This document shows positions 8,938 through 16,785 of a DNA stretch of 17,526 nucleotides, piece after piece (position 1 is the first letter of the stretch; the number at the start of each line of letters is the position of its first letter). Both the position numbers and the translations under genes were made by a program. Under the pieces are notes generated by a model. That model worked only from the letters and a program-made list of their open reading frames with translations, searched no databases and was not told where the DNA came from. The DNA comes from a virus. Its lineage: Duplodnaviria; Heunggongvirae; Uroviricota; Caudoviricetes. The stretch is taken from positions 1 through 17,526 of IMG/VR virus record IMGVR_UViG_2645727821_000005. One strand, given 5' to 3'.

Positions 8938-12618
<3,681 letters not shown>

Positions 12619-12644
<26 letters not shown>

Positions 12645-13164
12645 TCAGCAACCCCGGTATCAGTTCATCCAGCGCGGCTGCTTTGTTCATGGCTTTGATG
12701 ATATCCCGTTTCAGGAAATCAACATGTCGGTTTTCCAGTTCCGGAAAACGCCGCTGCACCGACAGGGGGATCCCGTCGAGAATACTGGCAATTTCACCTG
12801 CGATCCGCGACAGCACGAAAGTACAGAATGCGGTTTCCACCACTTCAGCGGAGTCTCTGGCATTTTTCAGCTCCTGTGCGTCGGCCTGCGCACGCGTAAG
12901 TCGATGGCGTTCGTACTCAATAGTCCCTGGCTGGAGATCTGTCTCGCTGGCCTGCCGCAGTTCTTCAACTTCCCGGCGCAGCTTTTCGTTCTCAATTTCA
13001 GCATCCCTTTCGGCATACCATTTTATGACGGCGGCAGAGTCATAAAGCACCTCATTACCCTTGCCACCGCCTCGCAGAACGGGCATTCCCTGTTCCTGCC
13101 AGTTCTGAATGGTACGGATACTCACACCGAAAATGTCAGCCAGCTGCTTTTTGTTGACTTCCAT
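12619..13164 (-). CDS. Nu1: Terminase small subunit gpNu1
   Basis: 181 aa (MEVNKKQLADIFGVSIRTIQNWQEQGMPVLRGGGKGNEVLYD...), ATG at 13164..13162. N-terminal winged-HTH region. Sits about 190 bp downstream of cosN as in lambda. Confidence 0.95.
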
Positions 13165-13400
13165 TGTTCATTCCACGGCCAAAAACAGAGAAAGGAAACG
13201 ACAGAGGCCCAAAAGCTCGTTTTCAGCACCTGTCGTTTCCTTTCTTTTCAGGGGGTATTTTAAATAAAAACATTAAGTTACAACGAAGAAGAACGGAAAT
13301 GCCTTAAACCGGAAAATTTTCATAAATAGCGAAAACCCGCGAGGTCGCCGCCCCGTAGCCTGCCGGATCGCCGGAAAGGACCCGCAGGCGTTCTGGTTTA
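13165..13400 (-). other. cos region (cosB between cosN and Nu1, cosN, and the cosQ side)
   Basis: Reverse complement of 13261..13353 reads GGGCGGCGACCTCGCGGGTTTTCGCTATTTATGAAAATTTTCCGGTTTAAGG..., the lambda left end as I recall it. Plus strand 13354..13385 (cgtagcctgccggatcgccggaaaggacccgc) resembles the lambda right end. Confidence 0.85.
13342..13353. other. cosN 12-nt cohesive-end sequence (GGGCGGCGACCT on the minus strand)
   Basis: Plus strand 13342..13353 is aggtcgccgccc, the exact reverse complement of the lambda 12-nt cohesive end. Confidence 0.85.
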
Positions 13401-13435
13401 TTCTCAATGAATTCAATGTCTGACAGACCTGCGTC

Positions 13436-13453
13436 GTGCGACCACGGTCGCAC
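13436..13453. repeat. 18-bp palindrome GTGCGACCACGGTCGCAC, copy 1 of 3
   Basis: 8-bp inverted arms GTGCGACC / GGTCGCAC around a 2-bp centre. Identical 18-mer recurs at 15122..15139 and 15342..15359. Confidence 0.9.
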
Positions 13454-13477
13454 AGCAATGAATCAACATCCTGCATG

Positions 13478-13546
13478 CTCGTGCAGAGGAGTTCCCCGTC
13501 AGGCTACGGTCATGGTTAATGCGGGAATACAGCGACGATACAGCGC
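13478..13546. repeat. Direct repeat, copy 1 (~69 bp; partner at 15263..15331)
   Basis: ctcgtgcagaggagttccccgtcaggctacggtcatggttaatgcgggaatacagcgacgatacagcgc aligns to 15263..15331 in the same orientation with 5 mismatches (about 93% identity) at an offset of 1785 bp. Confidence 0.9.
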
Positions 13547-13662
13547 ATGATGTGTCAGGCTTGAATACATTTATCCGTTAAAAGGGATATCAGTTAAGTT
13601 ATCCCGTGTAGGGTATAAGCCATTATCAAAGCCACTCAGTAGCGAATGGCTTTTGTAATGGA

Positions 13663-14112
13663 CTATTTAATTAGTGATGCTGCGTATTCGATTAGATATA
13701 ACTTAGGTGCCAACCAGATTTTTAACCATGTCATATTGGTTACTACAGCAATAATAAAACTTACCCACAGAACAAAAACTGCTGCTAATGGTAAGATAAG
13801 AAAACTAATCTCACCGTTACTTTCCCAAATCATAGTCGGTTTGTATTTAGGCTTCCCTTTTTCCCATGACCATCCTTCATTATCGAACTTACCAATTTCA
13901 ACTTTTTGGTACTGTTTCTTCATAAACCAAATAACCAGCGGGATTGTTGAAATGGCTATTAATGTTTTAATCAGGCTATCAACCATATTCCATACCAGCA
14001 ACTGATGAACAACATCCGGAATCTGAGCCTGACTGAATGCAATGGCGGAATCAATTCCATCGCTGGCCTTCTTCAATAAATCAACAAGAATTTTATTTGC
14101 TTCTTCTTGCAT
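13663..14112 (-). CDS. Hypothetical small membrane protein (149 aa; at least two predicted transmembrane segments), AT-rich accessory gene
   Basis: ATG at 14112..14110 with a weak AGGA-type RBS (MQEEANKILVDLLKKASDGIDSAIAF...). Hydrophobic stretches LIKTLIAISTIPLVIWFM and ISFLILPLAAVFVLWVSFIIAVV. Lysine-rich, low GC compared with the flanking phage genes. No family recognised. The ORF-track start at 14157 is an alternative. Confidence 0.7.
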   Translation of the reverse strand: MQEEANKILVDLLKKASDGIDSAIAFSQAQIPDVVHQLLVWNMVDSLIKTLIAISTIPLVIWFMKKQYQKVEIGKFDNEGWSWEKGKPKYKPTMIWESNGEISFLILPLAAVFVLWVSFIIAVVTNMTWLKIWLAPKLYLIEYAASLIK

Positions 14113-14237
14113 GTTTATATCCTGTAAGTTGTAAGCCTGTTCGAGAAAAATAAACAACTACGAGAGACAGAAAAAAAATATCTCAGGCTCTCTTTCTATA
14201 AGCTTTTAGTTGAGGATGTTCTGCAAAACAAAACTGG

Positions 14238-15098
14238 TTAGTTATGTAACTGCTTCCGGAATACAACAGCCGACGAGCTACAACGTAAAATTCGTTTGAT
14301 TGTGGCAGTTGAGGAAACATACTTGCATTTCTCAACATCATCAATAATGACCACATCCGGTACAGGAATGACGCGGGTATGCAATGTTTTTGCACTAATA
14401 ACATCACAGCCATTCAGTGGTCGAATATCTGCATCTTCAGGCACTACCAGAAGCACACGTTTTTCCGGTGCAGAAAAGCCAGCAGCAAGAGTGCGTGACA
14501 ATAAAGTCATTCCGCTGCGTGGCTTCATACAAATTTCAGAAATATGATTCTTTTCGTCCAAATGATGCTGGACATCATTTTTATCATCACTCAACAACTC
14601 TGCTGTTAATACAATCCCTGCTGTCTCAGATTTCCAGGAAATGCTGATATCCTGATCATCTGCATCAACATCATATTTCATCGAGTAAGGACTAAAGCTA
14701 CGTCCAACGAACGCATCATTTACCAGTACACGCCCACCCTGTCTGACCTGAAAGTCAACGCGCCCTGAAAGCTGATTTGCTGTTACAAGCAATGCCTTTT
14801 TTCTTTTTGTTTTATTGCTCATTGCCACCAACTGTTCAGCCATCTCTCTTGTCACACTACCAGAAACTCTTTCTTGAATTTTCACAGAAAATTTTCTGGA
14901 TGTAGTAGCATCGACATTAAAAAATCTGGATGTCATCAGGCAGTTATTAACAATTGGCATCAGCTCACTTACGATTGTAAAAAATTCCCGGTAAAGCTCA
15001 TTTTGCTTTTCAACACACAGCTTTCCACAATCGTCCAGCTTACGCTCAAGAGCACTTAACCTTTCCATTATTGAATTAATTTTTTGCAACTCTTTCAT
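14238..15098 (-). CDS. Hypothetical protein (286 aa), AT-rich accessory gene with a coiled-coil-like N-terminus; function unknown
   Basis: ATG at 15098..15096 preceded by a strong AGGAGG RBS at 5-6 nt spacing (MKELQKINSIMERLSALERKLDDCGKL...). The 373-aa ORF in the track extends upstream through the repeat and palindrome region and is probably not translated. Low GC. No family recognised. Confidence 0.75.
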   Translation of the reverse strand: MKELQKINSIMERLSALERKLDDCGKLCVEKQNELYREFFTIVSELMPIVNNCLMTSRFFNVDATTSRKFSVKIQERVSGSVTREMAEQLVAMSNKTKRKKALLVTANQLSGRVDFQVRQGGRVLVNDAFVGRSFSPYSMKYDVDADDQDISISWKSETAGIVLTAELLSDDKNDVQHHLDEKNHISEICMKPRSGMTLLSRTLAAGFSAPEKRVLLVVPEDADIRPLNGCDVISAKTLHTRVIPVPDVVIIDDVEKCKYVSSTATIKRILRCSSSAVVFRKQLHN

Positions 15099-15120
15099 CA
15101 AAACCTCCTGACAAAAATAC

Positions 15121-15140
15121 CGTGCGACCACGGTCGCACG
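15121..15140. repeat. 18-bp palindrome, copy 2 of 3 (9-bp arms here), just upstream of the 286-aa gene RBS
   Basis: cGTGCGACCACGGTCGCACg. On the minus strand the hairpin is followed by GGTATTTTTGT and then AGGAGG and the ATG, so it is terminator- or attenuator-like. Confidence 0.85.
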
Positions 15141-15262
15141 CTCCTGAATACATGCCCTGTTTCTTCCACCCTCGCACAGGACTGGCGAGCATGAGGGACA
15201 AACCCGCGAATCATTAGCGCGGTAAAAACCCGGTGTGCATCGTTTTTGATTATTTCCGCACA

Positions 15263-15331
15263 CTCGCGCAGAGGAGTTCCCCGTCGGGCTACGGTCATGG
15301 TTAATGCGGAAATACGGCGACGATGCAGCGC
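15263..15331. repeat. Direct repeat, copy 2 (~69 bp; partner at 13478..13546)
   Basis: ctcgcgcagaggagttccccgtcgggctacggtcatggttaatgcggaaatacggcgacgatgcagcgc; see copy 1. Confidence 0.9.
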
Positions 15332-15340
15332 GGTATTTAA

Positions 15341-15360
15341 TGTGCGACCACGGTCGCACA
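15341..15360. repeat. 18-bp palindrome, copy 3 of 3 (9-bp arms), 20 nt downstream of the DUF4406-like gene stop
   Basis: tGTGCGACCACGGTCGCACa. On the minus strand it follows the TAA of the upstream gene and is followed by the A/U-rich ATTAAATAC. Confidence 0.85.
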
Positions 15361-15378
15361 CGAGAAACAAAGAGATTT

Positions 15379-15690
15379 TTATGCTACAGAGGAACAAGCT
15401 GGCGGGTAATTCAGCGTAGTGAATACCGGCATCTCCATCTTGTATGCGTAATGATACTCAGCAGTTGCTCCAGCAGACGCTTTCCAGCCAGGAAGCATCA
15501 AAATAGCATCCGCACAACGAAGCATTGCAAAGCAAATATCCATGTATTCACGTTGTGTCAGACCATTAGGTAAAGTGGCTGGATTCAAGACAGAGTGACC
15601 ATGTCGTGACAAACGATCTGCCTCTTTATTAAAGGCGTCACGATTAAAGTTCTCATATCCCGTCATTGGCCCGGCAATATAAATTTTCAT
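15379..15690 (-). CDS. Small accessory protein, DUF4406-like / nucleoside 2-deoxyribosyltransferase-like (103 aa)
   Basis: ATG at 15690..15688 (MKIYIAGPMTGYENFNRDAFNKEADRLSRHGHSVLNPATLP...). The N-terminal MKIYIAGPMTG...NP motif is what I recall as characteristic of DUF4406. Sits directly downstream of Rz. GC is visibly lower than the head genes. Family call is from memory. Confidence 0.75.
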   Translation of the reverse strand: MKIYIAGPMTGYENFNRDAFNKEADRLSRHGHSVLNPATLPNGLTQREYMDICFAMLRCADAILMLPGWKASAGATAEYHYAYKMEMPVFTTLNYPPACSSVA

Positions 15691-15731
15691 TCACTATCCA
15701 ACAAATTGAGTTCGTTTTTGATACAGAGGGA

Positions 15732-16199
15732 TTAATTCAGGCATTGCGTATTGATGTATTCCTGAAGCGTTCTCAGTGCTGTTTGGTCGCGGATAATTCC
15801 GTCCCGGATACCGAGAACGTTTCGTCCAGCAACTGAAGAGAGTTCGACGGTGGCATCATTGCCCATGCCGGAGGCGCTGGAGGTTTTGGCTGAGGCTGGC
15901 ACAAGGCATTTTCCTTTGACGAGCACCCGACCACCATTATCAAGCTTACGCCGAAGAGCATCATTTTCAGCTTTCGCATTGGCTAACTCCTTCGTGTATT
16001 TAGCATCGAGTGCATCAGCAGCACGCTGGCGCTGCTGCATGTCAGCGATGGTGGCGGTCGCCTGCTTCAGCTCACTGACTTTTTTATCACGCTGTTCTTT
16101 GTAGGCGATGGCGTTATCACGGTAATGATTAACAGCCCACGACAGGCAGACGATGATGCAGATAACCAGAGCGGAGATAATCGCGGTTAACCGACTCAT
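15732..16199 (-). CDS. Rz: Spanin inner-membrane subunit Rz (i-spanin)
   Basis: ATG at 16199..16197 ([40 protein letters not shown]...) gives an N-terminal transmembrane helix, then a coiled-coil periplasmic domain; N-terminus is like lambda Rz. The ORF-track start at 16235 is a GTG extension. Confidence 0.85.
15773..15979 (-). CDS. Rz1: Spanin outer-membrane lipoprotein subunit Rz1 (o-spanin), embedded in the +1 frame of Rz
   Basis: 68 aa ([44 protein letters not shown]...). ATG at 15979..15977, lipobox-like VVGC and a proline-rich segment, entirely inside Rz in a different frame as in lambda Rz/Rz1. Confidence 0.8.
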
Positions 16200-16287
16200 G
16201 ACATCAACACCCCAACGGCTAGAAACCACGGCCACGCATCGTTGCCATTAAATGCGAGCAACGCTGCCATGAAAAAGCAAATCATGC

Positions 16288-16785
16288 TCATTGCTGCCCC
16301 CACAAACAGACTTCTCGCTCAATATCACGACGGGTCATCAGCCCTTTCCATTGCTTACCGCCAGCGTATGTCCAGCGACGCAACTGGTCACATGCGCCCT
16401 TGATATCGCCCTGGTTTATTTTGCGAAGAAGCGTCGATGTTCTGAAATTACCAGCACCCACGTTGTAAACGAATGAGTAAAGAGCGCCGCGCGTTGTTTC
16501 CGGTATATCGACTTTGATGTACGGGTTAATTTGTCTGGCGACAGTGGCAAGGTCTTTATTCAGGAGGGCTTTGCATTCTGCTTCGGTATACGTTTTACCG
16601 AGCATGATGTCTTTTCCGGTGTGTCCGTGACATACAGTCCATACGCCAACGATATCTTTGTATGGTATGTAGCTGACACCTTCCAGGCCATCGTCACCAC
16701 CTGGGCCAGTGATTAACACTGATGCTATAGCAATTGCTCCGCCACCAATAGCAGCAGCAACGGCTTTTCGTAATGATGGAGGCAT
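16288..16785 (-). CDS. R: SAR endolysin (T4-lysozyme-family muramidase with N-terminal signal-anchor-release domain), phage 21 R-like
   Basis: 165 aa ([59 protein letters not shown]...). Gly/Ala-rich weakly hydrophobic N-terminus typical of SAR endolysins, followed by a lysozyme catalytic region. ATG overlaps the S stop (TAATG). Confidence 0.9.

Follow-up and report, generated by a model that had tools for sequence, protein, structure and literature searches.

What are the three copies of a single 18-bp near-palindrome that lie within 2 kb of each other in the late region of a tailed phage? The DNA in question, called the window here, is a stretch of 17,526 nucleotides (nt) from a virus of the class Caudoviricetes (IMG/VR record IMGVR_UViG_2645727821_000005), which represents a lambda-like late region on the minus strand, from the tape-measure gene to the late methylase gene. 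An earlier note on this DNA, made from its letters, had pointed out the copies and considered operators, recombination sites or a reused terminator. Our analysis suggests that the three 18-mers are very probably SopB centromere sites of the N15 type, belonging to the class of the inverted repeats IR1 to IR4 of N15; on this reading an N15-type SopB would bind these copies, and a cognate SopB may have accompanied the DNA of the window.

The 18-mer and the partition sites of N15, phiKO2 and F

The window contains GTGCGACCACGGTCGCAC three times, exactly and in one orientation, at positions that we name sites A, B and C (Table 1) and that are spaced by 1686 bp (A to B) and 220 bp (B to C). About 0.01 matches are expected by chance and the observed count was reached in 0 of 200 shuffles. 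Hence the earlier note was correct on the identity and the positions of the copies, and on a chance origin being very unlikely. Beyond the three exact copies, the window has no match to the 18-mer at up to 3 mismatches. The element is not the perfect palindrome it had been taken for, because its two 8-bp arms flank a nonsymmetric AC center, which gives each copy a direction.

All three copies fit the 16-bp inverted repeat TGCGACC-NN-GGTCGCA, with C at half-site position 4. The N15 genome has four copies of this site: at 33479 within repA, at 35930 after Q, at 41124, which is 38 nt before the −35 element of the late promoter, and at 45561 after gene 58. The site at 45561 is the exact 18-mer; IR4 equals it letter for letter, and IR2 and IR3 deviate in the central 2 bp only. 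The oligonucleotides used for building an N15 centromere from IR1 to IR4 have been published, and the one for IR4 contains TTTCGTGCGACCACGGTCGCACGCTTTTCC (PMC7205306, Table 4). The action of SopB on the N15 sites has been published as well: foci on the IR1-IR4 array were formed by N15 SopB and not by F-specific SopB (PMC7205306). In each half-site a single nucleotide, at position 4/4′, distinguishes the sites of the two proteins (PMC2910045).

The comparison with F places the window on the N15 side of this difference. The sopC sites share with the window the 7-2-7 architecture and the central AC (TGGGACC-AC-GGTCCCA) and are bound by a homologous SopB, reported to be 49% identical to that of N15. 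The sopC core TGGGACCACGGTCCCA has a G at half-site position 4 where the window has C, the base reported to switch specificity, and F SopB is reported to be nonfunctional with N15 sites. Moreover, sopC consists of 10 to 12 tandem 43-bp repeats, in contrast to the wide spacing in the window. An F sopC-type centromere is ruled out by the lack of a tandem array, by this spacing and by the half-site base.

The record of phage phiKO2 lists four 18-bp features named "putative plasmid partitioning site," and three of the four are exactly GTGCGACCACGGTCGCAC. The one at 48618-48635 lies 16 nt after a DUF4406-like gene, and site C lies 19 nt past the stop codon of the DUF4406 gene in the window. Site C is the positional equivalent of this fourth phiKO2 site and of the IR4 zone of N15, which likewise has dispersed rather than tandem sites and one of them in the interval between gene 57 (DUF4406) and cos. 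Both phages have a single site in this zone, unlike the window with its three within 2 kb. In addition, phiKO2 differs in its host, Klebsiella oxytoca, and in its HK97-type head genes, and the window differs from N15 by another accessory cassette, by a lambdoid element (element E, described below) that N15 lacks, and by containing no sopAB. Like the 18-mer, chromosomal and P1 parS sites are short inverted repeats on which a ParB-family dimer is loaded, and they serve as centromeres; they are unlike it in sequence (e.g., TGTTCCACGTGGAACA) and in their cognate proteins. The lambda genome, used as a control, has no site even at 3 mismatches. The dif/Xer, telRL and REP families were set aside, as their sequences are not known to resemble the 18-mer. 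The 18-mer is a known element found again, and what the window adds is a new instance of it, in triplicate, within a variable accessory zone.

Could the 18-mer serve a different DNA-binding protein? Site B separates the ribosome-binding site of a gene for a 286-amino-acid (286-aa) protein from the DNA upstream of it; the distance is 10 nt to the Shine-Dalgarno sequence and 23 nt to the ATG (15098, minus strand). This location would suit an operator of another dimeric regulator such as this adjacent protein or a phage repressor. We regard such an operator as extremely improbable: the same 18-mer is present in N15 and phiKO2, both of which lack the 286-aa gene, the 286-aa protein has no match to a DNA-binding family, and the operators of the N15 CB repressor are annotated elsewhere. 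The operator proposal in the earlier note thus survives in part. The 18-mers do look like sites of a dimeric DNA-binding protein; that protein would be SopB, a member of the ParB family, and the sites would be parS-like rather than transcription operators.

Sop systems in the relatives and the spread of the sites

The nearest relatives of the region are Escherichia coli plasmids of ~46 to 75 kb (mostly 46 to 50 kb) and the Ravinvirus phage YDC107_1, which points to N15-like linear phage-plasmids. Of the plasmid relatives the closest is pAH01-1, which has genes for a protelomerase, SopA, a ParB/SopB protein and a replication protein of the CyRepA1 family that resembles RepA of N15. Its SopB is 73% identical to N15 SopB, and the helix-turn-helix stretch, which is credited with specificity, is nearly identical in the two proteins. 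The plasmid has the 18-mer or one-mismatch variants of it at six places, namely, in repA, after Q, before the late methylase gene and at the positions of sites A, B and C in the window, where A and B are intact and C is degenerate. Site A together with its cos-side flank is also found in pAH01-1 and in the CUVM3 prophage. The remark in the earlier note that nothing annotated explains the sites is accurate for the window; N15-like genomes hold sopAB elsewhere.

An exact scan of IMG/VR with the two central positions left free recovered 119 loci; together with the E. coli loci these contain 172 sites in ~40 flank contexts, all of them belonging to phage late regions or phage-plasmids. Most of the 172 sites occupy positions conserved in the N15 group or the phiKO2 group. 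The common contexts are 186 to 189 nt after Q; 8 to 9 nt after a gp51-like gene, ~260 nt before the late methylase gene; after DUF4406 or gene 58; 24 nt before the 286-aa gene; ~272 to 300 nt from Nu1; and two contexts after the major capsid gene of phiKO2-like Klebsiella phages. The site-B context is the second commonest among the exact sites in IMG/VR loci (18 sites). N15, phiKO2, pAH01-1 and many IMG/VR loci thus have sites at conserved dispersed positions, of which site C fits the fourth, and one IMG/VR locus (L228) combines A, B and C with an IR3-type site, which places the triple cluster on an N15-like backbone.

The central dinucleotide is AC/GT at 160 of the 172 sites, AT at 6, GC at 3, and GA, AA and CC at 1 each, and the orientation of the sites relative to gene order varies across the survey. 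Variation in both respects is consistent with recognition by a symmetric dimer that does not read the center.

A common repeat of the host genome (REP/BIME-like, scattered between host genes), which by the earlier note would have refuted its reading, is not what the recovered contexts show. A scan of genome contigs from all species, again with a free center, gave mostly single chance hits among the matches listed, in high-GC Actinomycetota and similar bacteria; the informative ones among those listed were one 46-kb Pseudocitrobacter contig and one Escherichia contig. In the ~60 kb of E. coli chromosomal flanks around prophages that were covered, no copy was found.

In phiKO2-like Klebsiella phage-plasmids (L126, L129, L163 and related IMG/VR loci) the 18-mer is also located downstream of the major capsid gene, where the phiKO2 record has no site annotated. 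In the commonest of these contexts the palindrome is widened to 13-bp arms, ACGCTGTGCGACC-AC-GGTCGCACAGCGT.

Hairpins, element E and mosaic junctions around the sites

The minus-strand gene order in the window is late methylase, holin, lysozyme, Rz, DUF4406, 286-aa, 149-aa, cos, Nu1, A, W and B onwards. The sites fall in the accessory region, with the lysis genes on one side and cos on the other (Table 1), and the placement given in the earlier note, near cos, upstream of the ribosome-binding site of the 286-aa gene and after the DUF4406 stop codon, agrees with our positions. The 12-nt cosN overhang is 83 nt from site A and cosQ is 53 nt from it; both were read by comparison with the lambda ends.

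Table 1. Sites and neighboring features in the window (positions count from its first letter)
Feature	Position	Strand	Evidence or remark
Site A	13436..13453	none	inverted repeat GTGCGACC-AC-GGTCGCAC, cos-proximal
Site B	15122..15139	none	same inverted repeat; arms reach 9 bp (C...G)
Site C	15342..15359	none	same inverted repeat, beyond DUF4406 gene
cosN overhang AGGTCGCCGCCC (13342-13353) and cosQ (13377-13383)	13342..13383	-	comparison with lambda right end
Element E, partial copy (5′ part), then site A	13469..13661	-	blastn, Ayreon E 11-204, 91.2%
149-aa accessory gene	13663..14112	-	open reading frame
286-aa accessory gene, between sites B and A	14238..15098	-	open reading frame; hypothetical protein in relatives
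Element E, partial copy (3′ part), bounded by sites C and B	15153..15331	-	blastn, Ayreon E 126-305, 92.8%
DUF4406 gene	15379..15690	-	Pfam PF14359, E-value 3.7e-34; homologous to N15 gene 57 and phiKO2 gp58

Neither the 286-aa nor the 149-aa protein has a match in Pfam or PADLOC; by eye, the 149-aa product resembles a membrane protein. The two genes move as a pair between N15-like plasmids and integrated prophages, and in YDC107_1 they are fused by a deletion that leaves the end of the 149-aa gene attached to the 286-aa gene. Between cosN and Nu1, at 13189-13245, there is an inverted repeat with 26-nt arms that are 85% complementary, an ordinary feature that by comparison with lambda corresponds to the cosB R-site region, to which the small terminase subunit binds.

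Might the 18-mer act in RNA rather than in DNA, as a reused intrinsic terminator or an RNA-stabilizing hairpin that insulates the accessory genes on the late minus-strand transcript? Every copy can fold into a G+C-rich hairpin of 8 to 9 bp (~−14 kcal/mol), and the N15 annotation marks IR4 as a putative terminator stem-loop. Site B is followed on the minus strand by the U-rich tract that the earlier note described, GGUAUUUUUG, and was flagged by a terminator scan. Such a role is nevertheless very unlikely, because a U tract is lacking on both strands at sites A and C and the tract at site B is interrupted in all sequenced relatives, including pAH01-1, YDC107_1, VTB96815v, CUVM3 and EC12 (UAUCUUUG versus UAUUUUUG in the window; caaagatacc versus caaaaatacc). 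Moreover, the scan found 4 terminator-like structures where shuffles predict 3.9, the same 18-mer is present inside the repA coding sequence of N15 and phiKO2, where termination would be harmful, and a hairpin role would not fix the exact arm sequence over ~40 contexts. We rejected the intrinsic terminator as a candidate since the hairpin occurs at all three sites and the U tract, offset by 3 nt, at B only, as a peculiarity of the window; the terminator option of the earlier note falls with it. An Rfam scan of 12500-16500 at an E-value of ≤1 returned three subthreshold chance hits (mir-578, osmY and adapt33), none of them at the sites.

The copies sit within a longer partial duplication that had escaped the earlier note: a 74-nt repeat (D1), 91% identical, is present at 13473-13546 and 15258-15331, and it belongs to element E, which in the window is split into two overlapping partial copies on either side of the accessory genes. 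Element E is a conserved, apparently noncoding segment of ~300 bp downstream of the lysis cassette in lambdoid phages (425-740 in Ayreon, L002; 46868-46974 in lambda; 579009-579116 in MG1655). It starts with a terminator-like hairpin, which the Ayreon annotation calls a terminator. The core of the element is ~82% identical to the lambda bor-p78 intergenic region and to DLP12, and there is no Rfam match. A 2.6-kb query containing element E matched 4913 of 5426 complete E. coli genomes at a median of 2 places each; these widespread matches fall on the E segment.

The sites sit beside element E at mosaic junctions, which raises the possibility that the 18-mer is a recombination or insertion site, either as the active terminus or the target of a small mobile cassette, or as a hotspot for the exchange of accessory modules. 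Blocks of homology between the window and other phage contigs break off precisely where site A ends on its outer side (13453 or 13455), one flank cluster was found with several alternative partner flanks, and the accessory genes of pAH01-1 are bracketed by direct repeats of a site plus E. In the prophage of DA33135 there is an empty site that lacks the inverted repeat (L249, 1860-1880), where the cos-side flank ...ctgacagacc is joined straight to E (tgaatacacg...). Filled versions (L004, 30680-30730; L132, ~1590-1640) carry here a discrete 29-bp insertion that holds the inverted repeat and whose ends may form a short repeat of 4 to 5 bp (GACC or AGACC). We still consider a recombination function unlikely. 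The sites have neither a recombinase nor a transposase linked to them, junctions are expected at any selected short element amid shuffled flanks, and the loci compared had been chosen for containing the site. Hence, of the recombination-site option in the earlier note, the position at mosaic junctions stands as circumstantial support and a linked recombinase is missing; the pattern fits alongside the centromere identity without displacing it.

Integrated prophages and the meaning of the sites

In type Ia partition, a SopB dimer binds an inverted repeat via its helix-turn-helix motif and nucleates a complex, which SopA positions on the nucleoid. The N15 sites are reportedly bound by SopB and confer SopAB-dependent plasmid stabilization, for which single sites are said to be enough to have a partial effect, and the Sop system is also said to aid late gene expression. 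If the window belongs to an N15-like linear phage-plasmid, an N15-type SopB dimer would recognize each TGCGACC-NN-GGTCGCA repeat by its helix-turn-helix, SopB on the dispersed sites would nucleate partition complexes, and the SopA ATPase would position these such that each daughter cell receives a prophage copy. Grouped within 2 kb, the three sites would then offer SopB a local cluster of places to load, midway along the linear prophage map. We hypothesize that site C marks the ancestral position after the DUF4406 gene and that sites B and A arrived through duplication and insertion of the accessory cassette with the 286-aa and 149-aa genes, flanked by repeats of element E plus a site.

Does the window come from such a phage-plasmid? 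Several observations weigh against working centromere sites in this DNA. No sopA, sopB or protelomerase gene is present among the genes of the window. The same sites occur in integrated prophages with an integrase gene, an early region of the lambda or P22 type, and neither sop nor telN genes, among them VTB96815v at dusA, CUVM3, and EC12 at a tRNA-Ser gene. The fetched prophage stretches of these three contained no detectable sop genes. An N15-type sopB was detectable by megablast in 15 of 5426 complete E. coli genomes, and none of the three strains is one of these. Moreover, 34 of the 49 site-B-type places in complete E. coli genomes are chromosomal, so that such sites are more frequent in integrated E. 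coli prophages than on N15-like plasmids. The EssD holin and methylase end of the window is joined to DUF4406 in chromosomal prophages only; because this end matches integrated prophages, the three sites may be orphans here. Finally, degenerate copies of site C exist in relatives: pAH01-1, CUVM3 and NCCP 15734 have GAGCGACCACGATCGCAC, with a GATCGC half-site. This variant, with one inner half-site change (L004, 32700; L246, 22291; L250, 19999), is inherited rather than a product of independent decay, since it is common to an N15-like plasmid and two integrated prophages.

These points fit orphan relics, in which an integrated lambdoid prophage acquired its accessory region by recombination with an N15-like phage-plasmid and retained the SopB sites by descent, functionless in their present place. 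In that case there would be no cognate protein in cis, and the sites could act only in the presence of a co-resident N15-like plasmid. We rate this a serious possibility, with a chance somewhat short of even. On the other side, the copies in the window are intact, with 18 of 18 bases each, although their flanks diverge by 2 to 8% from those of relatives, and the triple cluster is found on N15-like backbones as well (L228, and pAH01-1 with its degenerate C). No record in the phage, plasmid and E. coli collections matches the whole window above ~96%, nor is any IMG/VR locus its source. We lean slightly toward an integrated prophage as the source of the window. Two modest new observations are that integrated E. 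coli prophages often carry N15-type sites as orphans and that the sites adjoin a conserved lambdoid element at mosaic junctions.

There is also a small chance that a module of site plus element E spread into integrated lambdoid prophages that lack Sop and was kept intact there for a function, as a decoy or as a joint. If they were decoys, the sites would titrate SopB and destabilize incoming or co-resident N15-like phage-plasmids, a partition-based form of incompatibility. If they were joints, they would be short portable segments for cassette swaps between phage-plasmids and integrated prophages.

In summary, identifying the 18-mer as an N15-type SopB site would account for a repeat that the gene calls of the window leave unexplained, with the binding protein encoded ~25 kb away on N15-like genomes, or nowhere. 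Knowledge of the Sop partition mechanism is unchanged by this. In N15-group phages the zone between DUF4406 and cos is a variable accessory region where the number of centromere sites can grow. The sites could bear on how prophages and phage-plasmids exclude one another through incompatibility, and the 18-mer could be used to mark exchange between the two lifestyles.

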